IMG/VR virus record: IMGVR_UViG_3300045988_174371
Span: 288,001-352,000 of that record
Origin: a virus
Direction: 5' to 3' (one strand)
DNA: 64,000 bases
The notes under the pieces were generated by a model that saw only the letters and a program-made list of their open reading frames with translations, was not told the origin of the DNA and did not search any database. Shown one piece after another: positions 29,401 to 60,243 of the stretch (position 1 is its first letter; every line of letters starts with the position of its first letter). Made by a program: the position numbers and the translations under genes.

Positions 29401-29434
29401 CATATATATCAAACAGTCCGCACCACCAGGGAGC

Positions 29435-31370: not shown

Positions 31371-31384
31371 GAGCTACCCCAAAG

Positions 31385-31440
31385 ACATGAAGGAAGCCCC
31401 TCACAGACATCAAATTGTCTGTGAGGGGCTTCCTTCATGT
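31385..31440. terminator. bidirectional terminator
   Basis: 25-bp perfect inverted repeat acatgaaggaagcccctcacagaca / tgtctgtgaggggcttccttcatgt. Confidence 0.8.
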
Positions 31441-31459
31441 TATAGCTGTTTACTCAAGC

Positions 31460-32335: not shown

Positions 32336-32391
32336 GATAGGCTCCTAACGTAAGGTGAAACTAAAACGTGTTGTGTTGTTGCGACATAGAA

Positions 32392-32400
32392 GATATAGCA
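32392..32400 (-). promoter_or_regulatory. extended -10 box TGCTATATC
   Basis: The minus strand reads TGcTATATC, about 55 nt upstream of the ATG at 32335. Confidence 0.45.
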
Positions 32401-32412
32401 GAACAAACAGAG

Positions 32413-32463
32413 AATGGGTGTACCCTCCACTAGTCATAAGCGACCAGCCGGGGTACACCCATT
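32413..32463. terminator. hairpin downstream of Q2
   Basis: aatgggtgtaccc ... gggtacacccatt. Confidence 0.6.
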
Positions 32464-32512
32464 TTCAAATACACAACACGAATCAGGTTACGTCATAACC
32501 AGAGGGGCGACG

Positions 32513-34216: not shown

Positions 34217-34371
34217 AGTTATTTTTCTCCATCTTCATATAATATGCCGTGAACCCCTAGTGTGGCTTGCGCCACATCATTCCATTGCGGGGTTCATGTC
34301 GAAACTTATCCATATAACACATTCCGTTTCAAACTTAGGGGTTCTAGTGGTGCAATGGAACTGACGTATAC

Positions 34372-34380
34372 TATATAGCA
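34372..34380 (-). promoter_or_regulatory. extended -10 box TGCTATATA upstream of Q2
   Basis: The minus strand reads TGcTATATA. It would give a ~150-nt structured leader. Confidence 0.4.
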
Positions 34381-34477
34381 GACAGGAAGGGGGTTCGCCC
34401 CAAAATGGAGTGAAGCCCCACTTTTCCGGTGCCAGAGTAATGGCGGGGAAATGTGGGGCTTCTATAGCTAGAGGCAC

Positions 34478-45581: not shown

Positions 45582-45590
45582 AGTGTACCA
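45582..45590 (-). promoter_or_regulatory. extended -10 box TGGTACACT
   Basis: The minus strand reads AAAATATGTGGTACACT, about 40 nt upstream of the start at 45539. Confidence 0.5.
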
Positions 45591-45635
45591 CATATTTTAA
45601 GAGCTATGCAAGCGATATGTTTGTGGCGCAAAGAA

Positions 45636-45675
45636 ACCCCCTGCTTGCAACGACTAACAGTTGCAAGCAGGGGGT
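45636..45675. terminator. intrinsic terminator downstream of B1
   Basis: 16-bp perfect stem accccctgcttgcaac / gttgcaagcagggggt with a U-rich tail. Confidence 0.8.
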
Positions 45676-45690: not shown

Positions 45691-46860
45691 TTAGCTATCC
45701 ATTTCCAAGGAAGCCCAGAACCTCTCCTTGGAAAGTTCAACATCTCCAAAGGAGCTGAAATCTTCCAACCCACAGAACTCGGTAATACGGCTACAAATAG
45801 ACTCAGGACTCAATCGCGCCCTATCCCACGAAATAGCTGTCACATAGTCACCAGTAAGCATGTATGTGCCACCGAACGTGCGCTCAGTACGTTCAGCAAC
45901 AAGCCTACGCAAACCATCCTCAATTTGGCGCACAGAAAGGAACCTATACGCAGTTGGGATAGCCGACCTAAGACCAGCCTGCCACAAGAAGTAGACAATA
46001 GCCAGCGGGTCACCACCAATAAGGAACGGGTAATACAGTCCACACCGACAACCATCCTCAAGATGCACACTAGGCGCAATGCAGAACTCTTGAATATGCG
46101 CCCCAGTAGCCAGTAGCGATGCGGAGCGAATCAAAGTCCGCGCAATGTTGCTAGATAGCAAATCATCAATGCGCTTACCCGCAGTACCCACCCTCAGCTC
46201 CTCATCTGACATGGACAGAAACGCAGAGGGCACATACCAGACTTCACCCGAAGTTCCTACGGTAGCAGGCTTAACACCGCCACCAAACACGCTATCTCCA
46301 GCCCGGAAATAATCCGCCGGGTCATCAATCTTAAACGAGCCTTCCCCTACAAAGGTTGCCCTGAGGAGTGAGAAATTGCCAGAGAGCGTGAACTCGCTCT
46401 TTGGGCTGACCTTACAGGAGTCAAGCTGAACATCCCCAAAGGTACTAAGGCTCGAATTGTCCATCAAGGTCACCTTGTGCGCATCCCCACCAAAGCCGCT
46501 ATAGGTAGCGCCACTATGCAGTGTCAGCGATTCAACATTCGAGTTATGTAGTGTTAGCTTCACACCGTCATGCACGGTCACACCTGAGGCGTTACTATTT
46601 TTCAGGTCGAGGGTGATTCCTGAACCTTCTGCTGTGGCATCAGAGACAATCTGGACACCATCAACGCTACTATCTTCAATATGCACATCAACTGCCCCCT
46701 GAAAATTGCCAGGCTGAGAAACCTTATCCAAAGAGCTGTTGATGATTTCTCCTGAGCAGTGAAGCTGAACATCGTCACCAAACGAACAGCCACTCACCAC
46801 CACATCTCCAGTTAGCAGATTACCGTCATGTAGCCCACTCGGTTTTTCATGCGTAGCCAT
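45691..46860 (-). CDS. B-family paralogue B1 (beta-helix-like N-terminus + CHCC/YPL C-terminal module)
   Basis: The C-terminal module is QEFCIAPSVHLEDGCRCGLYYPFLIGGDPLAIVYFLWQAGL. The N-terminal half has repeats rich in [DGS]xx[VL]. ATG at 46860 follows AAAGG. Confidence 0.8.
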   Translation of the reverse strand: MATHEKPSGLHDGNLLTGDVVVSGCSFGDDVQLHCSGEIINSSLDKVSQPGNFQGAVDVHIEDSSVDGVQIVSDATAEGSGITLDLKNSNASGVTVHDGVKLTLHNSNVESLTLHSGATYSGFGGDAHKVTLMDNSSLSTFGDVQLDSCKVSPKSEFTLSGNFSLLRATFVGEGSFKIDDPADYFRAGDSVFGGGVKPATVGTSGEVWYVPSAFLSMSDEELRVGTAGKRIDDLLSSNIARTLIRSASLLATGAHIQEFCIAPSVHLEDGCRCGLYYPFLIGGDPLAIVYFLWQAGLRSAIPTAYRFLSVRQIEDGLRRLVAERTERTFGGTYMLTGDYVTAISWDRARLSPESICSRITEFCGLEDFSSFGDVELSKERFWASLEMDS

Positions 46861-46879
46861 AAACACCTTTCAGTAGCGA

Positions 46880-48439
46880 TTAGTCCTCAGAGCCCAGGAA
46901 CCCCTTGTCGGGTGCACTGAGATACTGGGCGGGAGTGGAATCCGTGAGAGAGCCAGCGAATCGCTCAAAATCACTCACGCCGCAGAACTCGAAGATGCGC
47001 TCCCTCACGGAGGTGAAGTTACACTCATCCGTCCAGTAAAGCTCAGTGAGACTCCATAGGTCGTAAATGTTCGATGCGCTCAAAATGGCTTCCTTCACCA
47101 TATGGGTAAGCTCAGCGTCGCTGTAGGCGTTATGTTCATCCGACGCAGAGCTTGACATACCGGCGGCTCGCAAGAAGTACAGGATGCCCACTGAATGACC
47201 AGCAAGTAGCAGGGGGTACGCAAGACCGCAGACACAGCCACTATTGGCGTGAATATCGGGCGCAACACAGAACTTGTGTACCGTTGCGCCAACACTCAAC
47301 AAACGCGCGCTGAGACGGTACGCGTCGTTGGCGGTCTGGCGGATAATCTCACCCTGCTCAGCGGAGGTTAGAGATTCCCCTGGATGGTGCTTGAGGATGC
47401 GCGAAAGGGTGTAGGGGATACGGGCTTGGGTGTTGATGGTCATTACCTTACCCTCTGCCTTACCCCACCATGCGGCAACCAAATCGTCTAGGCACATGCT
47501 GTGGTGAACATCTAGCGACATTGCGCCTACAAAGCTACTTGCACTAATGGAGAGCTTGCCTCGAATGTCGAAAGTGCCAGAATTAAACACGGACTTGAAG
47601 ATAGCTACCGACCCATCAACCTTAACCGAAGCGCCATTGCGGACATATGCCGTATCAATGCTAGGCTTAGTGCCCTTCGCTTCCAGCTTGCCACCCTGCA
47701 AGTATAGGTGGTTGATTTTAGTATTCTCGCAAACGAGGGCATTGGGTAGCTCATGAGAAGACGCGCCCAGGTAGCAAAGCTTACTGTTACGCGCATCCAG
47801 CGTACTGAAATGCTCTAGTGTGTAGCTATTCCGCACGTCAGTGTTCTGGACAGTAATCTCCTGCTTGCCCATTGCGGGTGAGCTCTGGAATCCAGACCCG
47901 TTCAATCGAGAGTTCTTGAAGTGCCCGCTGTAGAGGTTAATGCCGTAGTCCATCTTTACAGTGGACGGGTCTACCACAGCGTTACCTGCAATGACGTTGC
48001 CACCAAGAAGATTGTGAGCCTTCTTCGCAGGGACGATAAGCACATCCTCCACACCATCAATGGGTGAAAAGGAATCCAACAGAGTAGGTACGTTTACCTG
48101 AACGTCCTCAATGAGAGTGGGGGCATCTTCTTGCAAGGTTCGCTCAACGCCTGCAACAATATCCCTCTCCCACTTGCGCAAAGGCTGGGTAGCATCGTTC
48201 AGGTGGTTATTCCAGCCGCGATACAGCACATACTGGAACTTGTTACCATGTTCGCGGATAAACTCATGCATATTAGAGGGGAAAGCGTTACGCACCTTAG
48301 CTGGGTGGGTTCGCCAAAGAAGCTCGCCGTCGGGGGATAGGCGGGGCGTAGGTAGTCGCGTATCGAGGTTTACGCCGTCGGTCTTGTAGAGTAGGTAGAA
48401 GCGCTCCTTGGGCTCCTGCCAAATGTTCTTGTGGGTCAT
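46880..48439 (-). CDS. B-family paralogue B2 (519 aa)
   Basis: HKFCVAPDIHANSGCVCGLAYPLLLAGHSVGILYFLRAAGM. The C-terminal tail ERIFEFCGVSDFERF resembles B1 RITEFCGLEDFSSF. Confidence 0.8.
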   Translation of the reverse strand: MTHKNIWQEPKERFYLLYKTDGVNLDTRLPTPRLSPDGELLWRTHPAKVRNAFPSNMHEFIREHGNKFQYVLYRGWNNHLNDATQPLRKWERDIVAGVERTLQEDAPTLIEDVQVNVPTLLDSFSPIDGVEDVLIVPAKKAHNLLGGNVIAGNAVVDPSTVKMDYGINLYSGHFKNSRLNGSGFQSSPAMGKQEITVQNTDVRNSYTLEHFSTLDARNSKLCYLGASSHELPNALVCENTKINHLYLQGGKLEAKGTKPSIDTAYVRNGASVKVDGSVAIFKSVFNSGTFDIRGKLSISASSFVGAMSLDVHHSMCLDDLVAAWWGKAEGKVMTINTQARIPYTLSRILKHHPGESLTSAEQGEIIRQTANDAYRLSARLLSVGATVHKFCVAPDIHANSGCVCGLAYPLLLAGHSVGILYFLRAAGMSSSASDEHNAYSDAELTHMVKEAILSASNIYDLWSLTELYWTDECNFTSVRERIFEFCGVSDFERFAGSLTDSTPAQYLSAPDKGFLGSED

Positions 48440-48462
48440 GATTTACTTTCTCTTAGGGTGCG

Positions 48463-48508
48463 GGGTGGGGCGCTCCGCCGTATTGGTATCGGTCAGAGCG
48501 CCCCACCC
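48463..48508. other. 13-bp GC-rich stem-loop without U-tract, 23 nt upstream of the B2 start
   Basis: gggtggggcgctc / gagcgccccaccc. A TATAGT hexamer (48512-48517, minus strand) abuts it. Confidence 0.65.
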
Positions 48509-48525
48509 TCAACTATAGGTTGTGC

Positions 48526-50067
48526 TTAGCGGATGCCCAGAAGGTCAGCCGGGGCAACATGGTACTTGGAGGCAATGTGCTCGTTCCATGCTTCGTGGTC
48601 GTAGATGTCGTTTCGCTCCTGCCAGATGGTGTAGTGTGCGGCGCTTCCACCACGTGCAAGGCGGCTACCAAGCTCGGCGGTCTCATGGTTGAGAACCTGT
48701 TCCAGCTCAACCCAGCTCTTGCCCTTGTGCTCCTCTGGGATGTGGTTCTCCAGCCCGTTTGCCTTGAGGTAGTAGGTTACCGCAAGCGGGTTGCCGAACA
48801 GTAGCACGGGATAGTAGAGTGCGCAGAGGCAATTGTCTCGCTTGTGAACCTTCGGCAAGGCACAGAATCGCTCCATCTTAAAGCCGCCCTCAATCATCTT
48901 ACTGCTGGTGATAAGGGTGCTGTCTGCGCTTTCCGTGAAGTCCACATTCTCCACCTTACCGTGGTTCTTCCGTACTCGGTACTCGAACTTCGGCTTGAGC
49001 AGGAGAGGAAGCAGGTAGAAGCCGGTAAGGTCAGACATAGGGGTATGTGATTCTAGTGCTTTGAGGTCGAACCAGCCACCAAAGTTGCTGTCCTTAATGT
49101 GTGCATCACCGCTAATGGAGATGTCGCCGCCACTGAAGAATACCTTGTCTAGTAGAACATTTCCACTGAGGTTTAGGTTGGCTCCCATGCGAACATGGAC
49201 GTTGGTCAGCTCGCCGCCAGTAACAGAAATATTCGGAGAATCTGCCTTGCGGTGAACGCCAGTAAATTCACTGTGACTAACGGTGGTGTCGCGCAGGGTA
49301 AGGTTCAGTTCGCCAGTGGTGAAGACACCCTCGATGGTGCTGTCTTCTACTAGGGTGTTGCCAGTCAGTTCCGCCGTGTGGTAGATGCCGCTATTGCGAA
49401 CGGTGGTGTCACCTGCAATGATGATGCGACTTTCGCCCTCGTGTGAAGAGTGAGTCAGCTTATGACCCTCAGTGGGCATATGCTCCTTGGTGATAAGACC
49501 ACTTTCGACATTCGCGGAGCCAGAGATACGACACTCTGCATCTCGCATGTCCACATGGCGAGGGTCTACAGTTGCGTAGTCGAAAATGTGATTACCACCC
49601 AGAAGGTTCTCAGCACATTCCGGGAGTGCGTACACGCTATCGTACTTGTAGAGCACGCTCTGCATCTCACCGAAGATGGTTGGGATGTTGAGCTCGGGGA
49701 ACTGGATGAAAGTCTTCTTCGGCTGACTCTTATCCATCTCAATCTTGCCAGTCTCGCGGTTGAAGACTCCTGAGGTGCTGTAAAGTACGGAGCTGTAAGG
49801 AACCTTCCTACTGCCGAAGGGGTCGTTCTCACCCCAATTGTTCGACTTCGGGTATTTGAAAGCACTGTACCACTTCTCCCAAAGAGCTCCGTTAAGGGGG
49901 ACGCGCCACACGCTATCGAGGGTTCGCTGGTTTCGAGTGGTCTTCTTGGGGAGAGAGACGCTATTGGAGTCATGTACCCAGATGGGGACGGTGGTTGCAG
50001 GGGTGATGTATTCAGGGGTGTTGAGGTGCTTGAGAAGCACACTGACATTCTGTGGCTTGTCGGTCAT
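48526..50067 (-). CDS. B-family paralogue B3 (about 513 aa)
   Basis: ERFCALPKVHKRDNCLCALYYPVLLFGNPLAVTYYLKANGL. ATG at 50067 (MTDKPQ) follows GAAAGG. The longer ORF-track start overlaps the promoter box. Confidence 0.8.
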   Translation of the reverse strand: MTDKPQNVSVLLKHLNTPEYITPATTVPIWVHDSNSVSLPKKTTRNQRTLDSVWRVPLNGALWEKWYSAFKYPKSNNWGENDPFGSRKVPYSSVLYSTSGVFNRETGKIEMDKSQPKKTFIQFPELNIPTIFGEMQSVLYKYDSVYALPECAENLLGGNHIFDYATVDPRHVDMRDAECRISGSANVESGLITKEHMPTEGHKLTHSSHEGESRIIIAGDTTVRNSGIYHTAELTGNTLVEDSTIEGVFTTGELNLTLRDTTVSHSEFTGVHRKADSPNISVTGGELTNVHVRMGANLNLSGNVLLDKVFFSGGDISISGDAHIKDSNFGGWFDLKALESHTPMSDLTGFYLLPLLLKPKFEYRVRKNHGKVENVDFTESADSTLITSSKMIEGGFKMERFCALPKVHKRDNCLCALYYPVLLFGNPLAVTYYLKANGLENHIPEEHKGKSWVELEQVLNHETAELGSRLARGGSAAHYTIWQERNDIYDHEAWNEHIASKYHVAPADLLGIR

Positions 50068-50103
50068 GATGGTTGCCTTTCTATAGCTAAAATATCTACA
50101 AAA

Positions 50104-50112
50104 AGTGTACCA
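50104..50112 (-). promoter_or_regulatory. extended -10 box TGGTACACT
   Basis: The minus strand reads ATTATGTGGTACACT. Confidence 0.5.
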
Positions 50113-50184
50113 CATAATCTGTGGGTATTGCAATGCCCCGACACGCGAAGGGAAAACGCTTGCCAGGGGCATTGCTTTCAGTGG

Positions 50185-51180
50185 TTATGGCGTGGGGTCT
50201 TGCCCGGTCAGTCTCCTGTAGTGAGCCAGCCAACTCTCAGGTAGTTGTCTAATATACTTCTCCCACGTCAGATGGTCTTCCGGCTTGAAGTCTTCCTTAA
50301 CCATATGGAATACCTCAGATGAGCTAATGTATACCGGCTGTATATGCTGAGTGAACTCAAGAATGATGTTATTGACCCACTTCAAAGGCTCCCCCTCCCT
50401 CCGATATTCAGCATGGTAAACACCCCAGGGGTGAAGCTCCCTATTCCGGGATGCCAACTCGTTGTACGGGGACTCAATGAGTGACCTCACCTTCCCTGCA
50501 AGCGCATTCTCTAGCATTGTCCAGCTGAGCGTGCTGAGCGGGTTGCGGACAGTCCCATCTAGTGCTGGATAGTCTGAATTGCGAATACCTGACTGAATAA
50601 GTCCCTCTACTCTGAAGAGGTAATGTAGGGCTACAGGATTACCTGTAAGCATTAGAGGGTACCAAAGGAGACAATGGCAGTGCGGGTTTACTTGCAGGTG
50701 GGTGGAAGCCTTGAGACACATGGTGGAGTCGCGCCAGGCAGGGTGCTTAATGAGCCCATAGGTAGCTACGGCAGTACGCAGTATTCCCGCGCTTGGAGAC
50801 ACGAAGCTACTGTCACTCACCGTGTCTGGGTATTCAGGATGCGGCATGATGTCATAGAAGGCGTAGCGCAGGGATTCGCAATCCCCAGCCTCAGTGTCAA
50901 TAACGGCAGAAAGCGCCATAGGCGGCTCTAAGTCATTAGGTACATCAATTAGCACGCCTCCATCAAGTGAGACTTTCTGGAGGCGTATAGAGCCTCTTAC
51001 GGTGGCGTTGCCACGCATCTTTAGACGGTAACTCCACGAGTTGCCAGCAATAACAGTATCATCACCAGCGTCTAGGTAGTGATGCTGTCCACCCAATATT
51101 TGCGCGTTCCCCTTGAGTGACTTGAGCCCAGACAGCTCAACTTTCTCACCAATAATAACGCCTGACGCTTCGCCCTGCAT
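50185..51180 (-). CDS. B-family paralogue B4 (331 aa)
   Basis: MCLKASTHLQVNPHCHCLLWYPLMLTGNPVALHYLFRVEGL. A strong SD GGAAGGAG overlaps the B5 stop. Confidence 0.8.
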   Translation of the reverse strand: MQGEASGVIIGEKVELSGLKSLKGNAQILGGQHHYLDAGDDTVIAGNSWSYRLKMRGNATVRGSIRLQKVSLDGGVLIDVPNDLEPPMALSAVIDTEAGDCESLRYAFYDIMPHPEYPDTVSDSSFVSPSAGILRTAVATYGLIKHPAWRDSTMCLKASTHLQVNPHCHCLLWYPLMLTGNPVALHYLFRVEGLIQSGIRNSDYPALDGTVRNPLSTLSWTMLENALAGKVRSLIESPYNELASRNRELHPWGVYHAEYRREGEPLKWVNNIILEFTQHIQPVYISSSEVFHMVKEDFKPEDHLTWEKYIRQLPESWLAHYRRLTGQDPTP

Positions 51181-51195
51181 AGCTAAAACTCCTTC

Positions 51196-51912
51196 CTAAT
51201 TGGGTGTGGCGATATTTAGGCACAAGTCAGTCTGACCAGTCACCCGGCACCAATGGTTATACCAGATAGTGCGAGATAGCGGGACAGGGATATTGTCATC
51301 TCGCGGGATGTAGGACTTAATCTCGCTCTCCCACTTGCGGTAGTTCAGCTTCGCAAAGCCGCCACGATACTCAGGAAGATAGCTCTTGGCATCAGCATAG
51401 CCGTCAGTGAATACTTCAACGATTCGCTGACGCATACTCTCCTCCAGAACAGATAGGGATAGTATTGAGTATGGGTTTCGCGGCGACTTTTCCAGGTGAA
51501 TAGTAGGCGCTTTACCTAGAGGCTGTAGAAGCCCCTCTGCGCGGAAGAAGTAGTGCATTGCAATAGGGTTCCCCATGAGGTACAGCGGATACCAGAGAAG
51601 GCAACGGCAGGTATGCATTGTCCCACGATGCTTCTCATAGTCCAGGCACCACGTGCCAGTCATGGCGGCAGAATCTTCCAACACCTGCATGGTTAGTTTA
51701 GCCATTGCAAACAAACTGTCCCGACGAAAAGATTTCCCGTCGTTAAAGAACTTCTTTGTCTTCAGATTCGGCTTCGTTTCGCGCATATTATAGACAAGAC
51801 TAGCACCGCCCACATTAAGCATGAGTGGTGTTTCTCGTTCAGGAATGATGATGCGGGCTTCTTTCCCCAGCTTAGCGCTATTGATGGTCACGCTATCTGT
51901 ACTATAGTTCAT
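51196..51912 (-). CDS. B-family paralogue B5 (238 aa, short N-terminus)
   Basis: WCLDYEKHRGTMHTCRCLLWYPLYLMGNPIAMHYFFRAEGL, with SD GGAGAG. Confidence 0.8.
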   Translation of the reverse strand: MNYSTDSVTINSAKLGKEARIIIPERETPLMLNVGGASLVYNMRETKPNLKTKKFFNDGKSFRRDSLFAMAKLTMQVLEDSAAMTGTWCLDYEKHRGTMHTCRCLLWYPLYLMGNPIAMHYFFRAEGLLQPLGKAPTIHLEKSPRNPYSILSLSVLEESMRQRIVEVFTDGYADAKSYLPEYRGGFAKLNYRKWESEIKSYIPRDDNIPVPLSRTIWYNHWCRVTGQTDLCLNIATPN

Positions 51913-51941
51913 GATTCTCTCCTAAATAAGTAAGTAAAATC

Positions 51942-51950
51942 AGTGTACCA
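51942..51950 (-). promoter_or_regulatory. extended -10 box TGGTACACT
   Basis: The minus strand reads ATTTTGTGTGGTACACT, about 30 nt upstream of the B5 start. Confidence 0.5.
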
Positions 51951-51981
51951 CACAAAATAGCTACTATGTAGTTCCAGTGCA

Positions 51982-52845
51982 TCACCTCCCCATGTACGGG
52001 GTTCCTAGAGCCCGCTCAAGGAAGCAATGCCAGTCGCTCAGCTGATACTCTTTGCTGGTCTCTTCCTTACTAAAAAGCTCTTCGATGCCGTGGCTAGAAC
52101 AGTTTGCTTGAAGGATTTTGCGGGGTGCCAGCCAGTAGTCCTTGAGAATCTTGTCCAGTGATACGCGCATCAGTTTTTCAAGGCGGGTGGCGCTAAATGC
52201 GTAGTAGGGATTACGGAGGGTGCCTTCGGCATAGATGCTTCGATGCGTATCACCGTGCGGCTTGAGTCTCCCCTCTGCGCGTAGGAAGTAAAATGTGGCG
52301 GCAGGGTCGCCTAGGAGGATAAGCGGGAGCCAGAGGGCGCAACGACAGCGCGGCATATTCTGCGAGTGAACTTCACCGTTGAGACAGAAGCGAATATTGA
52401 CATACTCGGGGTGCTTATCCATGAGGTTTGCGGCGAATGTAGCTACCGACTGGAATGTCTGATTGGTGATAGCCGTATCTTCGGTGATGAGTCGAGAGAT
52501 GTCAGTCATGATGGGGGTGTTCCAGTAGCTATTGATGCTTACTGTCTCCGGCAGGGCGTTGAAGTCGTGGAGCTCAAATTTTCCGCCGTATTCGCCGCCA
52601 ATGATATGGAAATTACCCTTCACGGTAGCGTTGCCGGTAAAGGTTGCAGTAAGGTCGGTTTCTCGGCAGGCGACATGGGCATTGTCAGATGCTCGCAGTA
52701 TGTAGTGCGTTCCACCTTCAACGTATGCGTTATCGCGAACCTCGCAGGCGGTTAGTTCCGCGTCGTGGACACGGGCGTTGTCGCTGATGCGGTTCATGTC
52801 GCCATGAAGGACGCTGTTTCCGGTCACGTTATCGACATTTTTCAC
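51982..52845 (-). CDS. B-family paralogue B6 (287 aa)
   Basis: The N-terminus has DNA[RYH]V / GNxxV repeats every ~17-18 aa. The C-terminal module is RFCLNGEVHSQNMPRCRCALWLPLILLGDPAATFYFLRAEG. GTG start after AGGAAG. Confidence 0.78.
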   Translation of the reverse strand: MKNVDNVTGNSVLHGDMNRISDNARVHDAELTACEVRDNAYVEGGTHYILRASDNAHVACRETDLTATFTGNATVKGNFHIIGGEYGGKFELHDFNALPETVSINSYWNTPIMTDISRLITEDTAITNQTFQSVATFAANLMDKHPEYVNIRFCLNGEVHSQNMPRCRCALWLPLILLGDPAATFYFLRAEGRLKPHGDTHRSIYAEGTLRNPYYAFSATRLEKLMRVSLDKILKDYWLAPRKILQANCSSHGIEELFSKEETSKEYQLSDWHCFLERALGTPYMGR

Positions 52846-52896
52846 GGGTTTCTTCCTGAGTGTGAGTAGTGCATGATTTTCATTAAGATTTAGGGG

Positions 52897-52957
52897 TAAA
52901 ACCGTACCAATTTAAGGGTTTTCACTTAGTGTTTTGCCTTAAATTGGTACGGTTTTA
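52897..52957. terminator. terminator of the VWA-MoxR operon
   Basis: 21-bp perfect stem taaaaccgtaccaatttaagg / ccttaaattggtacggtttta. Confidence 0.75.
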
Positions 52958-52973
52958 GGGGTGATGGTGGCGG

Positions 52974-54539
52974 CTACATTTCGTTGTTGCCTACCGCGAA
53001 GAGCGCGGGGTAGAGTCGGGCACTTAGAGCACCTGCAATGGTTAGCGGGTTGTGCTCCAAAGACTCAAGGTGGCTATCCAACTTTTCCTGCTGGCTACTA
53101 GTGGTAGGATGCAGGTTAATCGACTTAGGCAGACCCAGCTCTTCAGTAGAGAACGCCTTCAGTAGACCCTCGCTGTGGCTCTTGGAGAGCATCTTGTGAG
53201 GAACCATAACCATAGGGTCATCCACACCACCGCCCGTAATGTCGGTACGGTTAGTGATGCTGTTGATAAGGTACTCCAGGACTGCGTGTAGCGGCGCGCG
53301 GAACACGCGGTTGCAATACGGCGACTCTTCATCCACTAACTCCGAAATAAGGTTCGTCACATTGACGATACCTTCCAGCAGGCGCGCCTTAGCTTCCTCA
53401 TCAGGGGCAGTATCGGACTTCTCTGGGAGGAAGTCATCAATATAGGTGTTTAGGCGCTCTGCAAGGCGGGAGGCATTGTCCTGGTCGTTCTCTGCGGTAG
53501 TTCGAGAGACCTTCTCAGGGTTCTCGAAAATTTCCGTAAGCGACATGGTTGCAATGGCAGAACCGCCGCCGGTAAGGGAGTCCGCATAGTTCTTGAGTGC
53601 GTCAGCAAAGGCGTTGTATCCGTCAAAGCCGATGGTCATCTGGGTAAAGTGAATCGCCAGGTCGTAGAACTTCTTCGGTTCTTCGGTGGGAAGCGAAGCA
53701 AGAAGGTCTGCGAGGTTTTCCCAGCTTCGCGGGGAGCGCCATGCGTAAGTTGCCGCGTCACGGCAGTTCTCATCCATGCTCTCTGCGAAGCGTTCAATGC
53801 GGGCATCACGGTTCATCTCATACAGGGTTCTGTCAGTGCGCTTGTCGAGATAGGTCGCAATCATCTCTCGGATGCGGCGCTCGTTATCAGTCATAGGCTT
53901 ACCCCAGGCGACCTTGAAGCCTTCCAGCCAGTCACCAATCGGCTGGTGGACAGGAATCCAGGTGACGCGGTTCTGCGTGGGCGGCGCAATGGGAGTGGGG
54001 TTCACGGAACTAGCCATTGAGTTAGTTGCCAAGACGATAACCGTCTCAGTAGGGATGGGGGTGCCATCAGGGAAGCGGCGCTCGTTAAAGATGTACAGCA
54101 TAGCCGCCTGAACGCTCTCGTTCGAGTTGCTGTATTCATCCAGCAGGAGAATGACCTTGCGGTGCTTGAGGATGCGTACCTGGAACGGTTCGTTGAGGTA
54201 GGTCGTAGACGGAACCTCGGTGAAGTTACCTTCTTCGTCAATGATGGTGGTAGAGCCTACGGAAGGGATACCCCCGATGGATTCAGGGGAAAGCTGAGCG
54301 CCAACAAGCACTTCTACGCTGTGGTAACCCATTTCGTCCTTGAGGGCGTGGATGGATGCGGTCTTGCCGATGCCGGGGCTACCGATGAGTCCGATAGATT
54401 TGCCGGGCTTCAGCTCACCGTTTGCGCCCATATGGGGGAATGCGCCGTACTTCACTAGTTCCATTGCGGTACTCAGAGATACGGGGGTGACGTTAATTGC
54501 GCCGGTGGGCTTTTCGTCTGTCATTACTGCATTAGACAT
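52974..54539 (-). CDS. MoxR/CobS-like AAA+ ATPase (521 aa)
   Basis: Walker A GSPGIGKT, Walker B VILLLDEYSNS, sensor-1-like VIVLATN, and SD AAGGAG. The C-terminal ~300 aa are unassigned. Confidence 0.85.
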   Translation of the reverse strand: MSNAVMTDEKPTGAINVTPVSLSTAMELVKYGAFPHMGANGELKPGKSIGLIGSPGIGKTASIHALKDEMGYHSVEVLVGAQLSPESIGGIPSVGSTTIIDEEGNFTEVPSTTYLNEPFQVRILKHRKVILLLDEYSNSNESVQAAMLYIFNERRFPDGTPIPTETVIVLATNSMASSVNPTPIAPPTQNRVTWIPVHQPIGDWLEGFKVAWGKPMTDNERRIREMIATYLDKRTDRTLYEMNRDARIERFAESMDENCRDAATYAWRSPRSWENLADLLASLPTEEPKKFYDLAIHFTQMTIGFDGYNAFADALKNYADSLTGGGSAIATMSLTEIFENPEKVSRTTAENDQDNASRLAERLNTYIDDFLPEKSDTAPDEEAKARLLEGIVNVTNLISELVDEESPYCNRVFRAPLHAVLEYLINSITNRTDITGGGVDDPMVMVPHKMLSKSHSEGLLKAFSTEELGLPKSINLHPTTSSQQEKLDSHLESLEHNPLTIAGALSARLYPALFAVGNNEM

Positions 54540-54578
54540 GGTGGTTAGTCTCCTTCTTAGGTGGTGTAGAGATGTTGC

Positions 54579-56366
54579 TTAGTGTGCAACTCGGATGATG
54601 GTTGGTTTGTAGTTTGCTGGTAGCGACTTGAAATATTCATGCATATGCAGGATGTCCTTGTCGCTATGCTTGGAGGTTAGAACGATAGCCAGCCCGTAGT
54701 TATGCTTGCACTTAAGGGCGTTGGCTACGTTCTGCCAGTCGATGTATCCGTCGGTAATGAGGATGCCCAGTGCGGCGGGAGGGTTCTTCTTCTCTCGGCT
54801 CGTCTCATACTCGTTGAGAGCGTTGATGAAAGGAGTCATGGCGGTACCGCCGCCACCCTTAAACACCACGTCAGATAGTTTCTTCACCGGCTGGAAATCG
54901 CCTAGAACAGTGTCAATAGCGCTAATGCGTAGGTCTGCTCGGTTCTTGAAACTATCAATAATGCGCTCAATATTACCTAGCACACGCCCACTATCTTCCC
55001 TGGTATGCATGGAGCCAGAGGTATCCACTCCAATGTACACGGTCGGCTTGACTGCATAACGAGTTGGAAGTAGCACTCGCTTATCTGGCAGGGCGGCGTT
55101 TAGTCGGTTGAACCTACGGAAGGTGCGGTGAGTACTGCCGGTGGTTCGGTGAGAAGACGCAATAGTGAGAACCTTCTTGAGCTGTGTAGACCATACGACA
55201 TAGTTGCCTGCGTCAATCTTGAGCACCCAGTTAAGAATGTTGTCCAGGTGGGTGTTGCCGATAGACTTACGCATCTGCTCTGCACGTACTAGGGCGAGCA
55301 TGTCGTTACGGCTTTCACGTTTGATAAGCTCGTCAGCCGCCTGGATACCCAGCGCGTCCATGAGGCTCTGAAGCATTTCAGCAGTAACAAACTGGTCGGT
55401 CATCTCGGTAAACTTCCCCTGCTGGGTATTGCTCTCGGGGGAACCTGCTTCGCCGGGGGTGCCACCATTGCCGCCAGAAGCTCCCTTATCGCTGTCACTA
55501 GTGCTATTGCCCTGCTGGTCACCATTGCTGGGATTTGCGCCGCTATTGGAGCCGCTGGTGTCGCTATCAGAGTTACCACTGGAGGTATCGCTGGAGCCGG
55601 TATCCTCATTATTGGTATTAGAGGTGCCGTCACCTTCTTCACTGTTCTTATCGTCGCTACCGCCATCATTACTGAGGCTTGAGCGCTGAGAGGCACCATT
55701 ATTCGATTTAACATCAGAGCTATTATCCCCCTGCGGTTCGCCGGTAGGCGAAGCAGACTCATTGCTCTGCGGCTTACTTTCAGCAGAGCCGCTACCTCCA
55801 CCAGAGCCTTGCTGTCCTAGGGCTTCTGCGTCATCCCTAAGCGCGTTGTGGAACTCCTCTGCGATGCCGCTGGCGGGGAGGTTGTAGTCTGCGGGAACAA
55901 AGTCAATGCCGGGAGTGAGGCGGAAGCGACCGGAGATGCCACTGATGCGCTGGTTAATTTCAAGGTCGAATGCCAGGCGGGTAATCTCGTCATCTTTGTA
56001 GCCTCGGGTAGCAACGCGCTTATCCTGTAGGATGATGATTCGCAAAATTTCACGGAGCGCCACCTTGAGGGTTTCCGCGTTGCGATAGGTGTCTAGAGAG
56101 CCCTCAGGGAGGCTGATGCGCCAGTCCTTGTCGATGCTTGCCTGCTTGGAGTTGATGATTGCAGGGCGCACCTGTCGAATGATGGGTGCAAAGTATGGTG
56201 AGATGCTTGTCAGCTCGTCCGTGAGGTGAATGAACACGTCAAGCTCTTTAGGGGTGAGCTTACGTAGCATGATGGGCACTTTCTTAGGGCTATTTGCCGG
56301 TAGCCCAGTAATGCTGTTTACAGCGGGCGCGCCGGGCGGCGGTGCCATCTGAATAATAGGGAGCAT
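54579..56366 (-). CDS. VWA-domain protein with a DUF2201-like N-terminal domain (degenerate metallopeptidase motif) and a Ser/Gly/Asn/Asp-rich linker
   Basis: MIDAS motif VYIGVDTSGSM ... GGGTAM ... ILITDGY. The N-terminal region has ALREILRII where HExxH is expected, followed by AFDLEINQRI. ATG at 56366 (MLPIIQ) follows GGAGGG. Confidence 0.8.
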   Translation of the reverse strand: MLPIIQMAPPPGAPAVNSITGLPANSPKKVPIMLRKLTPKELDVFIHLTDELTSISPYFAPIIRQVRPAIINSKQASIDKDWRISLPEGSLDTYRNAETLKVALREILRIIILQDKRVATRGYKDDEITRLAFDLEINQRISGISGRFRLTPGIDFVPADYNLPASGIAEEFHNALRDDAEALGQQGSGGGSGSAESKPQSNESASPTGEPQGDNSSDVKSNNGASQRSSLSNDGGSDDKNSEEGDGTSNTNNEDTGSSDTSSGNSDSDTSGSNSGANPSNGDQQGNSTSDSDKGASGGNGGTPGEAGSPESNTQQGKFTEMTDQFVTAEMLQSLMDALGIQAADELIKRESRNDMLALVRAEQMRKSIGNTHLDNILNWVLKIDAGNYVVWSTQLKKVLTIASSHRTTGSTHRTFRRFNRLNAALPDKRVLLPTRYAVKPTVYIGVDTSGSMHTREDSGRVLGNIERIIDSFKNRADLRISAIDTVLGDFQPVKKLSDVVFKGGGGTAMTPFINALNEYETSREKKNPPAALGILITDGYIDWQNVANALKCKHNYGLAIVLTSKHSDKDILHMHEYFKSLPANYKPTIIRVAH

Positions 56367-56395
56367 ACAGCAACCCCTCCTTTCTTTCAAAGAAT

Positions 56396-56404
56396 AGTGT
56401 ATCA
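56396..56404 (-). promoter_or_regulatory. extended -10 box TGATACACT for the VWA-MoxR operon
   Basis: The minus strand reads AATATATGTGATACACT, about 30 nt upstream of the ATG at 56366. Confidence 0.5.
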
Positions 56405-56456
56405 CATATATTGCAGGCTAACAAGAACCTGCAACATTTTCTCCACAATAAGAGAA

Positions 56457-56510
56457 AACACCTGAGGTGCATGTTGGTCATAGCCTTAACCAACATGCAC
56501 CTCAGGTGTT
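56457..56510. terminator. intrinsic terminator
   Basis: 21-bp perfect stem aacacctgaggtgcatgttgg / ccaacatgcacctcaggtgtt with a U-tract on the minus strand. Confidence 0.8.
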
Positions 56511-56522
56511 GAGCGCTAATCG

Positions 56523-56786
56523 TTATTCGCCGCTGAAGCCACAGTCCGAAGAGCCAGAATCCGACGAAGAGTAAGAAGAAGAGGAGCAAGAATCGCTGTA
56601 GCTACTGCTCGAAGAATAGCTATCTGAACTGCTACTCGTAGAGTAGTCGTAACCGCTGTCTACGTCGCGTGCGTCGTCAAAAACAGTAGAGTTGCTAGTG
56701 CTTGACGAAGTGCCTACACCCGCCGATGCGCTCGAACGACGCAGGGATTCCTTCTTCTTTGCGCGAAGCTTGCCAAAAGAAAACAT
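56523..56786 (-). CDS. small Ser/Asp/Tyr-rich low-complexity protein (87 aa)
   Basis: A basic N-terminus MFSFGKLRAKKKESLRR is followed by ...SSSSDSYSSSSSYSDSCSSSSYSSSDSGSSDCGFSGE. Confidence 0.5.
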   Translation of the reverse strand: MFSFGKLRAKKKESLRRSSASAGVGTSSSTSNSTVFDDARDVDSGYDYSTSSSSDSYSSSSSYSDSCSSSSYSSSDSGSSDCGFSGE

Positions 56787-56808
56787 GTAAGGTCCTAACT
56801 AGGTATAC

Positions 56809-57171
56809 CTACGGTGAGGTAGTGTTCAAATCTTCGTACAGCAGAAACCCGCAATACCTAGAGTAGGTCACCCCAAGGCTACGGCTCTCCGTGTAGGGAA
56901 TCGATTGAGATACCCGATGCCCAACACTCTTATATCTTACCTTCCCAGGCGCAGGGTAGGCAACCCAGCTCTCCTTCTTACTCCTAGAGTTCTTACGCAT
57001 AATGTGCGCCACTGGCTTAGGTGGCTCTACTGACCTATTAACCACTGTATAGATTTTCGGGTTGCCGGTAGTCATTAGCGCTGTGTTAGTTTCGTAGTTC
57101 GTGGCGACCGCCTGCCATTCAGACGCACCCATAACAATATGGTCTACATCCTCAGCTTTCATAGTACCCAT
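56809..57171 (-). CDS. hypothetical protein (120 aa)
   Basis: Co-directional ORF, tightly packed with its neighbours. Confidence 0.6.
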   Translation of the reverse strand: MGTMKAEDVDHIVMGASEWQAVATNYETNTALMTTGNPKIYTVVNRSVEPPKPVAHIMRKNSRSKKESWVAYPAPGKVRYKSVGHRVSQSIPYTESRSLGVTYSRYCGFLLYEDLNTTSP

Positions 57172-57179
57172 AACAGCCC

Positions 57180-57629
57180 CTAACGCCTATTACCAGTAGC
57201 GATAAGGTTATATGCCTGCAACATGCAGTCCTTACCGCCATCTTGAGCCTCTGCAATAGAGGCGAACATGGCAACTTTCATGCCGCGCTGGTGTGCTTCT
57301 CGCGCGAAGTTAGCCGCACCTACTCCTACAGATACCGCAAGGGATAGCCCGCTATCCTGCAACTCTGCCAATACCGACGGGTGGGGGATGGCAACAATCG
57401 TATCTGGCAAACCAGGTTCCATAGGCATAACCGTAAATAGAGAGGGGGCTTTACTGTGCATGGCTGAGGATAGTTCCTCAATGGTGGTTGCATGACGGAA
57501 TGGCTCCAGTATGGGCTCTGTGCGATGCAGGTCATACTGTGAGGCACTAATGAAGAACGGTAAGTAGCTGTCCTCCAGGCGGTATGTCTGGACGGGTGTC
57601 CAGTTCGGGTTGTTTTCAAAACGGGGCAT
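57180..57629 (-). CDS. hypothetical protein (about 149 aa)
   Basis: ATG at 57629 (MPRFENN). The longer ORF-track start would overlap B7. Confidence 0.6.
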   Translation of the reverse strand: MPRFENNPNWTPVQTYRLEDSYLPFFISASQYDLHRTEPILEPFRHATTIEELSSAMHSKAPSLFTVMPMEPGLPDTIVAIPHPSVLAELQDSGLSLAVSVGVGAANFAREAHQRGMKVAMFASIAEAQDGGKDCMLQAYNLIATGNRR

Positions 57630-57640
57630 GGGTCGTACCT

Positions 57641-58813
57641 TTATGCATGGTCTGGTTTGATGTTGGTAAGTCGAAGAATCTTGTTCACCCATTCCTCTTT
57701 GCTGGCGGGAATGTCGTGAAGGGATGAATGTTCTTCCCATGTTTTGCGAAGCTCAGCTTTGAGGGCGACTTCAAGCTGAGGAATCGTTAGGAAGTTGTAG
57801 GGGTGCCCTGCGGGAAGTTTAGAGACCCTGCTTCCCGATAGCGCCATATACTGCACCGCCGCCGGAGTCCCCATGATGTAGAGCGGGAAATAGAGTGCAC
57901 AGCGGCAGGGACGGCGATGGCGGGTGGAATCGAGGCAGAACTCCCATTCTCCTGTGCTCCAACCCAATGCCTCACAGCTTATCTCTAGAAGATGCTGAAT
58001 GGAACTGGGTTGAATTAGGGTTTCACCGTTCAGGTGGTTGATAAAGTCGGAAACGTAGTATGCATCATCAACACAGACTTTCGTCTCATCGCTTGAGGCG
58101 ACTTCATGCAGGGCATTGAAGTTCCCGCTCATGAAAACGTCGCCTTCAAGGGTGACGTTTCTTAGCATTGCGAAATGCACAGAGATATTTCCTCCCAAGT
58201 GGCACCCTGCAAGATATGAATCATCTCCAACGTATATGTCTCCGCCATGTAGCGTAGTATTACTGACGGTTGCGTAGCCAATGTCTACCTTACCACTGGT
58301 GAACACGCCGCCTTCAATTAGTGCGCCATCATGTACGTGCGTGTCATCACGAAGGATGCACTCAGGGGTTCCCTCGTTGCCGCTATCTGTATGAGTGATA
58401 GCGCGTGGCGGTTTGAATGACCTTGGGGACTCAATACAGCTTCGGTCAAGCACTAGCACCGTGGGCGACTGCCAGCCAGTAGAGGTTATTTCTACAGTTT
58501 CGCTTACTTCCGCTTCCCCTTCCTGAATTTTTCCAGGTTCCTTAGGGTGTGTCGCGTCTGCTTCATCCATTGTTAGCCAAGGTGCCTGCCATTCAGGGTC
58601 ACTGTATAGGGCGCAATGAATTTTCTTTGCGCGCTTACCTGTGCGCTTATCCAGCTGTTCGTGGGTCAGATAGGTGAGGTTTACCTTTTTGTCTGCTAGA
58701 GCGTACAGTTCTTCCTTAATCCTGTCGCCGGGGAAAGTGTAGGTGTTGAGGATATGTCGGGCGGTTGCCACCGTATATGTGGTTTTCTGCTCGATACTGG
58801 GGGTGAACGCCAT
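57641..58813 (-). CDS. B-family paralogue B7 (390 aa)
   Basis: EFCLDSTRHRRPCRCALYFPLYIMGTPAAVQYMALSGS, with beta-helix-like repeats (GGVFTSGKVDIGYATVSNTTLHGGDIYVGDDSYLAGCHLGGNISV) and SD AAGGAG. Confidence 0.8.
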   Translation of the reverse strand: MAFTPSIEQKTTYTVATARHILNTYTFPGDRIKEELYALADKKVNLTYLTHEQLDKRTGKRAKKIHCALYSDPEWQAPWLTMDEADATHPKEPGKIQEGEAEVSETVEITSTGWQSPTVLVLDRSCIESPRSFKPPRAITHTDSGNEGTPECILRDDTHVHDGALIEGGVFTSGKVDIGYATVSNTTLHGGDIYVGDDSYLAGCHLGGNISVHFAMLRNVTLEGDVFMSGNFNALHEVASSDETKVCVDDAYYVSDFINHLNGETLIQPSSIQHLLEISCEALGWSTGEWEFCLDSTRHRRPCRCALYFPLYIMGTPAAVQYMALSGSRVSKLPAGHPYNFLTIPQLEVALKAELRKTWEEHSSLHDIPASKEEWVNKILRLTNIKPDHA

Positions 58814-59215: not shown

Positions 59216-59737
59216 TTACTGGTGGGTGTAGTAGGCGCTCTGGGTTACGGGCTCATCAGAGGCATACAGAGGGTTTTCCGTGTAGGTGCCTGCCGAAATG
59301 GTGATGTCGCGGATGTCGCGGTATGTGCCGCTAACCATAGCGCCGCCCGTAATGTGCGTGTAGCCGCCTAGCGAACTGTTGCCGCCGGTCTGACTGTACC
59401 CATACTGCTGAGCCTCACCAGTCAGAGTGGAGCTTCCTCGGTGAACTGCATATTCATATAGCATTGCGTTGCCGGTAACAAGGGCGTTTACCATGCATAC
59501 AGCATTGTCGAATACCTTACCTTCGCCTGCTACCCAAGCATTATTTCCCTGCGTAAGGTTGTGTTCAGATTCAATCCATCCGCCTAGCTGACCTGCAATG
59601 ACATTATGCTCGGGAATGTCGCGGGTCGCCTTGATGCGGTGTACGGTAACTTCCCGTCCTTGCCAGCGGGGGTGGGGGAAAGTCGCCGTCTTATCGGTGA
59701 GTACGTACTTGCGGTTCTTATTGAAAGTATTGCTCAT
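59216..59737 (-). CDS. beta-helix-repeat protein (about 173 aa) related to the B-family N-termini but lacking the CHCC module
   Basis: ATG at 59737 (MSNTFNK). The repeats are NNAWVAG, DNAVCMV, GNAMLYE, GSSTLTG, GNSSLGG and GGAMVSG. Confidence 0.65.
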   Translation of the reverse strand: MSNTFNKNRKYVLTDKTATFPHPRWQGREVTVHRIKATRDIPEHNVIAGQLGGWIESEHNLTQGNNAWVAGEGKVFDNAVCMVNALVTGNAMLYEYAVHRGSSTLTGEAQQYGYSQTGGNSSLGGYTHITGGAMVSGTYRDIRDITISAGTYTENPLYASDEPVTQSAYYTHQ

Positions 59738-59790
59738 TCTATGGTTCTTTCTGGAAATATTCTGCACCCAAAAAGCTGGGCTTGATGGTA

Positions 59791-59799
59791 AGTGTACCA
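59791..59799 (-). promoter_or_regulatory. extended -10 box TGGTACACT
   Basis: The minus strand reads ATCTATGGTACACT, about 55 nt upstream of the ATG at 59737. Confidence 0.45.
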
Positions 59800-59880
59800 T
59801 AGATTTAAGGCGGCTTTTGCACCCCATCAGGGGCATGGTAAACTTAAACTCCCAAGCGAAACAACCTATTGAAAGGAAAT

Positions 59881-60243
59881 ATGAACCCCCAAAAGAAACA
59901 CATGAAGAAACACCTGACCACTGCCGCGCTCGCACTTGGCTTCAATTTGCCGGGCATCATGTTCGCCGCATACCTCATCCTCGCCAACTCTCTGCGCTCA
60001 GTCCCCGGAGACATACACCTAATCACCACCGCCACAGGTCAGGACATCAATCTTATCGCCCTAGGAGCCGCATGGTTCATTGGAGAGAGTATTGCGGCAG
60101 TCATCGCCGTAGTAGCAATCACTGCAAAGGAAGCCGCCGTCATCGCCTATGGCAAGTCCCGACAGGCGCTTACTATCACCAAGAGAGCCCTTGTACGCTT
60201 CCTTGGGGTTGAAGTACACGAGAACCCACTGAGGAGCCGATAA
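59881..60243 (+). CDS. small membrane protein (120 aa)
   Basis: ATG at 59881 follows AAAGGAAAT. It has two or three TM segments and a terminator after the stop. Confidence 0.6.
   Translation: MNPQKKHMKKHLTTAALALGFNLPGIMFAAYLILANSLRSVPGDIHLITTATGQDINLIALGAAWFIGESIAAVIAVVAITAKEAAVIAYGKSRQALTITKRALVRFLGVEVHENPLRSR

Follow-up and report, generated by a model that had tools for sequence, protein, structure and literature searches.

A lineage-restricted multigene family with an invariant Cys/His module, arrayed behind a MoxR-VWA gene pair in a giant uncultivated mobile element

In a stretch of 64,000 nucleotides of the IMG/VR virus record IMGVR_UViG_3300045988_174371 (positions 288,001 to 352,000 of that record; hereafter, the window), seven minus-strand genes, B1 to B7, are real, expressed-type genes of a previously undescribed, lineage-restricted multigene family, whose products join variable N-terminal parts to a constant C-terminal module built around four invariant residues (Cys, His, Cys, Cys; the CHCC core). 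The main array of these genes lies directly after the genes of a VWA protein and a MoxR-type AAA+ ATPase, with which it has a promoter type in common. The explanation that we favour, with a probability of about 0.38, is that they are metal-stapled solenoid proteins acting as clients or adaptors of the MoxR-VWA machine. All seven open reading frames (ORFs) are present at the coordinates and on the strand given by the initial annotation, which had been made from the sequence alone, and are listed here with their lengths in amino acids (aa).

B1, 45691..46860, minus strand: 389 aa, subfamily II; solenoid N-terminus; CHCC core at 45991-46083; EFCGLEDF tail
B2, 46880..48439, minus strand: 519 aa, subfamily II; CHCC core at 47213-47269
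B3, 48526..50067, minus strand: 513 aa, subfamily II; CHCC core at 48772-48864
B4, 50185..51180, minus strand: 331 aa, subfamily I; CHCC core at 50620-50718, RNPLSTLSWTMLE
B5, 51196..51912, minus strand: 238 aa, subfamily I, nearly solenoid-free; CHCC core at 51550-51648
B6, 51982..52845, minus strand: 287 aa, GTG start, subfamily I; CHCC core at 52288-52386; the protein used for modelling
B7, 57641..58813, minus strand: 390 aa; CHCC core at 57848-57937; conserved N-terminal domain of its own; encoded upstream of the pair

All seven proteins contain C-x5-H-x(3-6)-C-x-C and then L-x-[YLF]-P-[LFV]-x-[LI]-x-G, and apart from the start Met their full-length alignment has eight invariant positions: C, H, C, C, L, P, G and Y. 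The longer regular expression initially proposed for this block fits six of the members but not B2, which departs from it after the CxC at three positions, having LAYP, G-H-S and V-G-I-L-Y where the pattern wants [WY], G-x-P and x-A. A six-frame scan of the window found the extended motif C-x5-H-x(3-6)-C-x-C-x-L-x-x-P at seven sites, all of them in B1-B7, and the bare core C-x5-H-x(3-8)-C-x-C at ten, against 0-2 in 20 shuffles, the three surplus matches being out-of-frame noise with stop codons. The sequence RNP[YL]S..S...LE had been ascribed to most members; it is exact in B4 and B5, varied in B6 (RNPYY..S...LE) and looser in B7 (HPYNFLT...LE), and since the block is absent from B1-B3 it marks one subfamily rather than most of the family. 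The EFCG..DF tail does occur in both B1 and B2, and an extra N-terminal domain of about 130 aa is common to B2 and B3. The spacers of 15 nucleotides (nt) between B5 and B4 and of 19 nt between B2 and B1, as well as the order of six copies behind the VWA/MoxR pair and one ahead of it, are also as first described.

Beyond the window, the alignment of 47 diverse module sequences bore out the expectation that the Cys and His positions would be conserved: Cys25, His31, Cys38, Cys40 and Tyr57 (numbering of the B6 module) are invariant, the spacing C-x5-H-x(3-8)-C-x-C is found in 47/47, Ala54 in 44/47, and the Glu of an L-E-[DE] helix in 38/47. The initial annotation could not assign the module to any family, and neither could we, as the modules of B1-B7 had no match in Pfam, NCBIfam, PHROGs or PADLOC, the profile had 0 matches at E<=10 among PDB sequences, the C-terminal domain had no Pfam match at E<=1 in any of 58 members, and a domain-fusion search found no known domain fused in any of the same 58. 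The AlphaFold2 model of this domain, built for B6 with the 47-sequence alignment, is all-helical, with eight helices (mean predicted local distance difference test score, pLDDT, 87.7; predicted template modelling score, pTM, 0.86), and compared by Foldseek with the PDB it gave nothing better than E=5.4 and template modelling (TM) scores <=0.22, the criterion being E<=0.001 or TM>0.5. On this model, the C-terminal domain (constant, all-helical, about 150 residues) looks like a new fold. Within it the first Cys stands ahead of a short His-bearing helix and the CxC in the next loop (the four invariant residues being Cys154, His160, Cys167 and Cys169 of B6), and the stretch L-W-L-P-L-I-L-L-G-D-P-A-A-T-F-Y-F-L forms two short helices (pLDDT 90-97). 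This stretch was considered as a membrane anchor, for which a mean Kyte-Doolittle value over 19 residues above about 1.6-2 and a continuous helix were required; B1-B7 reach maxima of 0.83-1.71, whereas the membrane proteins of locus L008 reach 2.8-2.9. Given the low hydropathy, and a stretch broken into two helices within a globular model, it represents buried core and not an anchor.

Cys-x5-His and Cys-x-Cys most likely hold one structural metal ion, which by default we take to be Zn2+; from their invariance and spacing we infer that the four ligands come together in the fold. The metal site would then staple the hydrophobic L-[YW]-Y-P-L-x-L-x-G-x-P-x-A-x-x-Y core. Two known zinc motifs invite comparison, namely that of the ZAS anti-sigma factors, H-x3-C-x2-C with an upstream Cys/His, and the SWIM finger, C-x-C-xn-C-x-H. 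With ZAS the module shares the four kinds of ligand, their C...H...C...C order and a helical domain, but its spacing is C-x5-H-x(3-8)-C-x-C and not H-x3-C-x2-C, while with SWIM it shares the CxC pair but has the reverse ligand order. Neither is the pattern seen in the 47 sequences, and neither family gave a Pfam match; more broadly, zinc-finger and anti-sigma families had no Pfam match at E<=1 and were not among the Foldseek matches.

The family is real and under purifying selection, but narrowly distributed. An exhaustive HMMER profile search of 1.84 billion representative proteins (E<=0.001) returned 50 clusters only, of proteins of 200-570 residues with the module C-terminal in each, and a word-indexed protein search found only 8-10 close relatives, even with the 47-sequence profile. 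Deposited phages and plasmids gave no match (megablast of the region; tblastn of B3, B5 and B6), and no family member was found in 185,579 bacterial and archaeal species represented by one genome each. The sole match of that scan was a 10-residue chance string in a non-coding frame of an Acutalibacteraceae metagenome-assembled genome, and it thus offers no evidence for a cellular origin. All relatives are on metagenomic contigs, up to 270-375 kb in size, and two are listed in IMG/VR. In comparisons with two close relatives (L001 and L022), the ratio of nonsynonymous to synonymous substitution rates (dN/dS) was 0.12-0.24 for B1-B7 (0.12-0.15 for B1), 0.15-0.17 for the VWA gene and 0.06 for the ATPase gene; values so far under 1 indicate that B1-B7 are functional coding sequences under purifying selection. 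A neighbour-joining tree of the modules separates two old subfamilies, the B4-B7 type and the B1-B3 type, with one-to-one orthologues between the window and L005 (B3 and its orthologue L005 a6 are 42% identical) and lineage-specific bursts in the largest arrays. Family orthologues are 30-47% identical, against 46-62% for neighbouring genes, and their N- and C-terminal parts diverge at similar rates. In a 308-kb relative, one member (L004 9323-10600) is broken by an in-frame TAG at 9941, and several database gene calls of relatives begin within the module; these could be a pseudogene, read-through or gene-calling artefacts.

The N-terminal parts had been read as beta-helices, and this reading is upheld by the AlphaFold model and by recurrent sub-threshold matches of the 58 aligned members to the bactofilin, LbH, YdcK and FapA solenoid families of Pfam. 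The modelling supports triangular beta-solenoids of about 17 residues per coil, sometimes placed after a paralogue-specific domain. The proposed periodicity of 17-18 aa is clean, at 16-18, in B4 (18, 16, 17, 17) and B6 (16, 16, 17); it is less regular in the other members, and B5, with some 63-88 residues ahead of its module, has essentially no solenoid. In the full-length B6 model, DSSP assigns a strand ladder to residues 6-83 (pLDDT 74-86). This model had no Foldseek match at E<=0.001 in the PDB or BFVD (best E=0.018), and its weak top matches are solenoid proteins (the SV2A luminal domain, NleL, Qnr and CAP) because of the N-terminal strand ladder. With the bactofilin, LbH and YdcK families (PF04519, PF18836, NF040481; phrog_5070, phrog_7964) the heads share 16-18 residues per coil, small polar or Gly-Asn turns, a hydrophobic periodicity of about 6 and the strand ladder, and a true YdcK-like gene lies nearby (59216-59737). 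They differ in scoring under the curated cut-offs, in being short (4-10 coils) and of a length that varies by paralogue, down to almost none in B5, and in being joined to a CHCC helical domain, which known members of those families are without. For the YdcK type (PF18836/NF040481), B6 reached 14.2 bits against a cut-off of 30 and B3 14 bits against 350, with weak matches in 4/58 family members; for bactofilin PF04519 (cut-off 27.9 bits) none of B1-B7 matched and 4/58 members did so below threshold (best E=7.7e-4). Pairwise similarity between the stand-alone YdcK-like protein and the family heads is marginal (best E=0.003 in a 34-sequence database), and the N-termini are not conserved between paralogues. 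DNA mimicry by the heads was considered and rejected, their net charge ranging from -18 to +8 and hence not being uniformly acidic.

Read along the minus strand, the order is YdcK-like gene, B7, three small ORFs, a hairpin, VWA, MoxR-type ATPase, B6-B1 and a further hairpin, with the following features besides the family members.

YdcK-like beta-solenoid, stand-alone and without the module, 59216..59737, minus strand: about 173 aa; phrog_5070 E=1.5e-24, NF040481 E=1e-10
Three small conserved ORFs, 56523..57629, minus strand: 149 aa (57180-57629), 120 aa (56809-57171) and a Ser-rich one of 87 aa (56523-56786)
Terminator-like hairpin, 20 bp with a T-run, 56460..56507, minus strand: closes the B7 unit shortly before the VWA gene
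Extended -10-like motif, 56396..56406, minus strand: TGTGATACACT, upstream of the VWA gene
VWA protein, 54579..56366, minus strand: 595 aa from the ATG at 56366; Pfam DUF2201 25.9 bits against a cut-off of 26.4; phrog_1314 E=3e-16
Long ORF of the VWA gene, 54579-56405, minus strand: GTG start overlapped by the motif at 56396-56406
MoxR-type AAA+ ATPase, 52974..54539, minus strand: 521 aa; Pfam AAA_5 28.6 bits against a cut-off of 22; phrog_1297 E=1e-22
Spacer between the MoxR gene and B6, 52846..52973, minus strand: 16-bp hairpin CCGTACCAATTTAAGG...CCTTAAATTGGTACGG, then TTTT
Extended -10-like motif, other copies in the array, minus strand: 51942-51952 (upstream of B5), 50104-50114 (upstream of B3) and 45582-45592 (upstream of the gene after B1)
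Terminator-like hairpin, 16 bp, GC-rich, with a T-run, 45636..45675, minus strand: 15 nt past the B1 stop codon
All copies of the motif, minus strand, at 6258, 12097, 43281, 45582, 50104, 51942, 56396 and 59791: mostly 25-40 nt upstream of ribosome-binding sites

The ATPase belongs to the AAA_5 family, with a Walker A of GSPGIGKT and a C-terminal region of about 350 aa whose type is unassigned. The VWA protein consists of an N-domain, a linker of about 150 aa rich in Ser, Gly, Asn and Asp, and a C-terminal VWA domain with a metal ion-dependent adhesion site (MIDAS). The linker is of low complexity and varies in length and sequence between lineages, while in the alignment of three lineages the MIDAS is intact, with DTSGS, GGGGT and ITDG invariant. 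The L010 orthologue of the protein matches DUF2201 at E<=1e-5; the N-domain had no Pfam match at E<=1. At the position that presumably corresponds to the HExxH of PF13203, the three lineages have REILR, REALR and REVLR, and the peptidase-like domain is probably inactive, as judged from these residues. The motif TGTGGTACACT (TGTG[GA]TACACT, with one mismatch allowed) has eight copies in the window, all on the minus, that is the coding, strand, against 1.9 expected, and this 11-mer is likely to be an extended -10 promoter class of the element. Because the promoter-like motif overlaps the GTG start of the longer VWA frame, the ATG at 56366 is favoured for that gene; similarly, the copy at 59791-59801 lies inside the long GTG-start ORF of the YdcK-like gene (59216-59935), whose real start is therefore probably the ATG at 59737. 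Terminator-like hairpins bracket the segment from VWA to B1, and further hairpins stand behind B4 and B3. Together with the shared motif, they agree with the early suggestion that the array is a set of short units, here with one promoter class. The three small ORFs between B7 and the VWA gene had no family matches; the 149-aa and 120-aa ones have syntenic orthologues in L001, L005, L016 and L025, the YdcK-like gene in L001, L005 and L015, and B7 orthologues occupy the same position in L001, L005, L015, L020 and L025.

That the family would be found with MoxR/VWA pairs elsewhere had been put forward as a check, and it was found so, in three diverged lineages and at 15 of 28 independently fetched metagenome loci. 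In the three lineages (L001, L005 and L010, whose ATPase orthologues are 98%, 52% and 46% identical to that of the window), the order VWA, MoxR and array is kept between the same flanking genes, and the arrays hold 6, 7 and 16 module-bearing members. At the 15 loci VWA and MoxR genes adjoin the array; one further contig is cut inside the ATPase gene, and the remaining loci either stop short of the upstream region or represent a conserved secondary locus. Every array with at least five members and enough upstream DNA has the pair adjacent. A more distant lineage, L011, has a diverged ATPase, two members only and no recognisable VWA; the 219-aa protein in the place of VWA was examined by profile comparison and is not a VWA protein. 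Single members without the pair nearby occur at L018 and L019, and at L019 a protein combining TROVE (Ro-like) and VWA (2961-4562) lies a few kb from the single member and a YdcK-like gene. A TROVE protein is also encoded about 6 kb upstream of a MoxR-like gene in Vibrio phage phiKT1024 (L050). The genomes with the main array have, at a distance of roughly at least 100 kb, a second conserved locus (L035, L040, L041, L042 and L013) with two members of greater length (about 470-530 aa); a long conserved C-terminal extension (...NEALWYLNYL...GITPEEF...) is present in one. In the most expanded lineage, two module-free multi-pass membrane proteins (L008 4792-5691 and 5704-6792) are encoded in the middle of the 16-member array.

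In MoxR-VWA systems the MIDAS of the VWA protein binds an acidic residue of a dedicated client, which the MoxR ATPase remodels, and this remodelling often inserts or repairs a metal centre, as in CbbQO, NorQD and CoxDE. Known pairs, such as CbbQ-CbbO of Rubisco, NorQ-NorD of nitric oxide reductase, RavA-ViaA and ATV p618-p892, resemble the one described here in that an AAA_5-type ATPase adjoins a MIDAS-intact VWA protein and the candidate client genes follow directly downstream on the same strand; as in several systems that mature metal centres, the candidate clients carry a putative metal site. Instead of a single enzyme complex, as in the known systems, the candidate clients are a 6-16-copy array of paralogues of an undescribed family. 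The p618/p892 pair of the archaeal virus ATV interacts with virion proteins, including the filament-forming p800 (PMC4124505), and a role in virion assembly has been proposed for the MoxR-vWA pair of jumbo phages, which has a peptidase domain at the N-terminus (Iyer et al. 2021, PMC7824862). The VWA N-domain of our element stands where the DUF2201-type metallopeptidase domain sits in the latter pair, differing from DUF2201_N in having RExLR for HExxH in all three lineages.

We therefore envisage, by analogy with such systems, that the constant domain of B1-B7 would be the handle bound by the VWA protein, and that a conserved acidic residue, for instance the Glu of the L-E-[DE] helix, may complete its MIDAS. 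Remodelling, metal loading or assembly of the family proteins would then fall to the ATPase, and their solenoid heads may be paralogue-specific surfaces or the building blocks of a larger assembly. Metal binding, a physical interaction with VWA or MoxR, and the nature of any assembly are what we infer. From the position of the array behind the pair, the B1-B7 family would be the best candidates so far for the clients of the adjacent chaperone. A bolder version, which we think improbable as a whole, is that the module is a new metal-cofactor fold matured by MoxR-VWA in the manner of NorQD or CoxDE, with 7-20 paralogues per genome co-assembling through bactofilin-like solenoids into an unknown filament or scaffold in a new class of giant elements of Gram-positive gut bacteria. 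Several observations weigh against the client-or-adaptor explanation. The adjacency is synteny inherited within one clade and amounts to roughly one evolutionary observation, and no MoxR or VWA gene lies within 10 kb at L004, L013, L018, L019, L035 and L040-L042. In the window itself, B7 sits outside the unit of the pair, in one of its own that a strong hairpin closes, a T-run hairpin separates the MoxR gene from B6, and the promoter-like motif is spread over the window (8 copies) and is not specific to the cluster. Moreover, no virion, cytoskeletal or other assembly gene was recognised nearby, and the metal could be Fe-S (iron-sulfur) or Cu and not Zn.

Of the other explanations, that of chance motifs or mis-called ORFs is already refuted and of negligible probability: seven in-frame copies contrast with 0-2 in shuffles, dozens of contigs hold homologues with identical invariant residues, purifying selection acts on all seven genes and the structure model is confident, whereas no supporting point was found. 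A rather unlikely account makes the proteins adaptors or decoys, with heads that each bind a different host protein, of defence or housekeeping, and a C-terminal domain that docks onto MoxR-VWA or a host factor. It would suit a copy number varying from 2 to 16 by lineage between fixed flanks, orthologues that diverge faster than the neighbouring genes, and a setting of tRNAs, TnpB and many orphan ORFs that looks accessory. YdcK-like homologues are common in Gram-positive phages, where they lie in early/replication regions and not in structural modules (they are multi-copy in Lactobacillus phage LfeInf), and the weak Foldseek match to NleL is to a solenoid with a catalytic domain; bacterial solenoid-HECT effectors would be the architectural analogue. 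Poxvirus ankyrin-PRANC/F-box proteins are likewise similar in architecture only, being tandem paralogues with lineage expansion and variable repeats joined to a small conserved helical C-terminal domain, with no sequence or fold relationship and with a different repeat type, host kingdom and partner machine. However, dN/dS is clearly <1 in both comparisons and the N- and C-terminal parts diverge alike, so the heads show no sign of having been the focus of an arms race. The absence of uniform acidity in the heads speaks against the DNA-mimic form of this account, and no PADLOC or anti-defence family was matched. Membership of a defence system was itself examined and dropped, for want of a PADLOC match.

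Less probable again is that the proteins are autonomous metal or redox proteins, i.e., Fe-S or Cu sensors or regulators working in the manner of zinc anti-sigma factors or WhiB, for which adjacency to MoxR-VWA is mere inherited order. Three Cys and one His including a CxC also serve Fe-S, Cu(I) and redox-switch zinc sites, members do exist at loci without MoxR/VWA nearby, and L011 keeps two members without a VWA gene. Yet the family has no profile or fold similarity to such proteins, none of 58 members is fused to a DNA-binding or sigma-binding domain, a need for 7-20 solenoid-headed paralogues in sensing is hard to see, and the place of the array behind the pair has been kept over deep divergence. 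Equally improbable in our view, and a special case of the client-or-adaptor explanation, is that they are virion components of a huge phage (fibre, decoration or internal proteins) assembled by MoxR-VWA. Jumbo phages (PMC7824862) and the archaeal virus ATV (PMC4124505) provide precedents, the contigs are of 270-375 kb with two in IMG/VR, tRNAs are many and scattered, and phage fibres commonly use solenoid folds. Against it, neither the window nor the fetched loci yielded a recognisable capsid, portal, terminase or tail gene, comparable gut contigs are conjugative megaplasmids (PMC12934698), so that the element may make no virions, the solenoids are short, unlike tail-spike helices, and the N-termini, the usual anchors of fibres, are unconserved between paralogues. 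It is the lack of recognised structural genes, together with the early/replication location of the YdcK-like phage homologues, that places the virion version lower.

The rest of the window bears on the replicon that carries the family.

SecA homologue, 1406-4909, minus strand: SecA_DEAD E=4e-104
Eight scattered tRNA genes, 5493-59149, minus strand: Ser (two), Gly, Thr, Pro, Gln (two) and Met
C5 cytosine DNA methyltransferase, 6719-7984, minus strand
TnpB/Cas12f-like protein, 8507-10315, minus strand
Sortase-domain protein, 12187-13047, minus strand: near the adhesin-like protein
Secreted adhesin-like protein, 14410-17118, minus strand: 902 aa; signal peptide; Adhesin_P1_N and DUF11 matches
Run of large ORFs, 19039-36961, minus strand: 476, 374, 846, 798, 817, 473, 567 and 827 aa; no Pfam or PHROG match

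The Walker-A loop of the SecA homologue is split by an insert of about 310 residues (MGTGEGK / AVTTDTL...IVTHN / TLTAV), and its residues of about 100-200 have PHROG matches to intein-bearing terminase, primase and helicase families; the insert is probably an intein, here in the SecA of a mobile element. The adhesin-like protein ends in KAETG...TM...KRRKK, with no canonical LPXTG, and from their sequences it looks as if the sortase, this protein and SecA form a surface-display set encoded by the element. The sortase and the tail resembling a cell-wall sorting signal imply a Gram-positive host. A sample identifier in the style of the Human Microbiome Project appears in the contig name of one relative. 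In the window, Pfam and PHROG scans of some 40 ORFs and PDB sequence searches with four large ORFs revealed no phage or plasmid hallmark, and the four largest ORFs of the 19039-36961 run had no PDB sequence match. This giant uncultivated mobile element may be a huge phage or a megaplasmid. A 2026 preprint identifies comparable 'huge phage' contigs of >300 kb from the human gut as conjugative megaplasmids that have sortases and TnpB (PMC12934698). The element resembles these 'Hodor' megaplasmids (PMC12934698) in being uncultivated, >300 kb and filed in huge-phage or viral collections, and in its sortase and surface-protein genes, TnpB insertions and implied Gram-positive host. It differs in GC content, which is 48-52% in the loci examined here and 44.6-47.1% in 'Hodor', and the preprint makes no mention of MoxR, VWA, SecA or tRNAs (PMC12934698). 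The 'Hodor' markers Rep_3, ParABM, type IV secretion system, SecYEG with trigger factor, and giant surface proteins were not found in the 64 kb window.

While the chaperone pair and the solenoid fold are of known kinds, the C-terminal domain of B1-B7 looks new. MoxR-VWA pairs occur widely, in bacteria, archaea, jumbo phages and other large mobile elements; to our knowledge, clients have been identified for only a handful of them and for none in a bacteriophage. An array lying behind such a pair therefore offers a concrete, clonable set of candidate clients for co-expression, metal and pull-down work. With up to about 20 copies of roughly 1.1 kb, the family may fill around 5% of a genome, and it provides a specific metagenome marker for a clade of giant, uncultivated elements of 270-375 kb.

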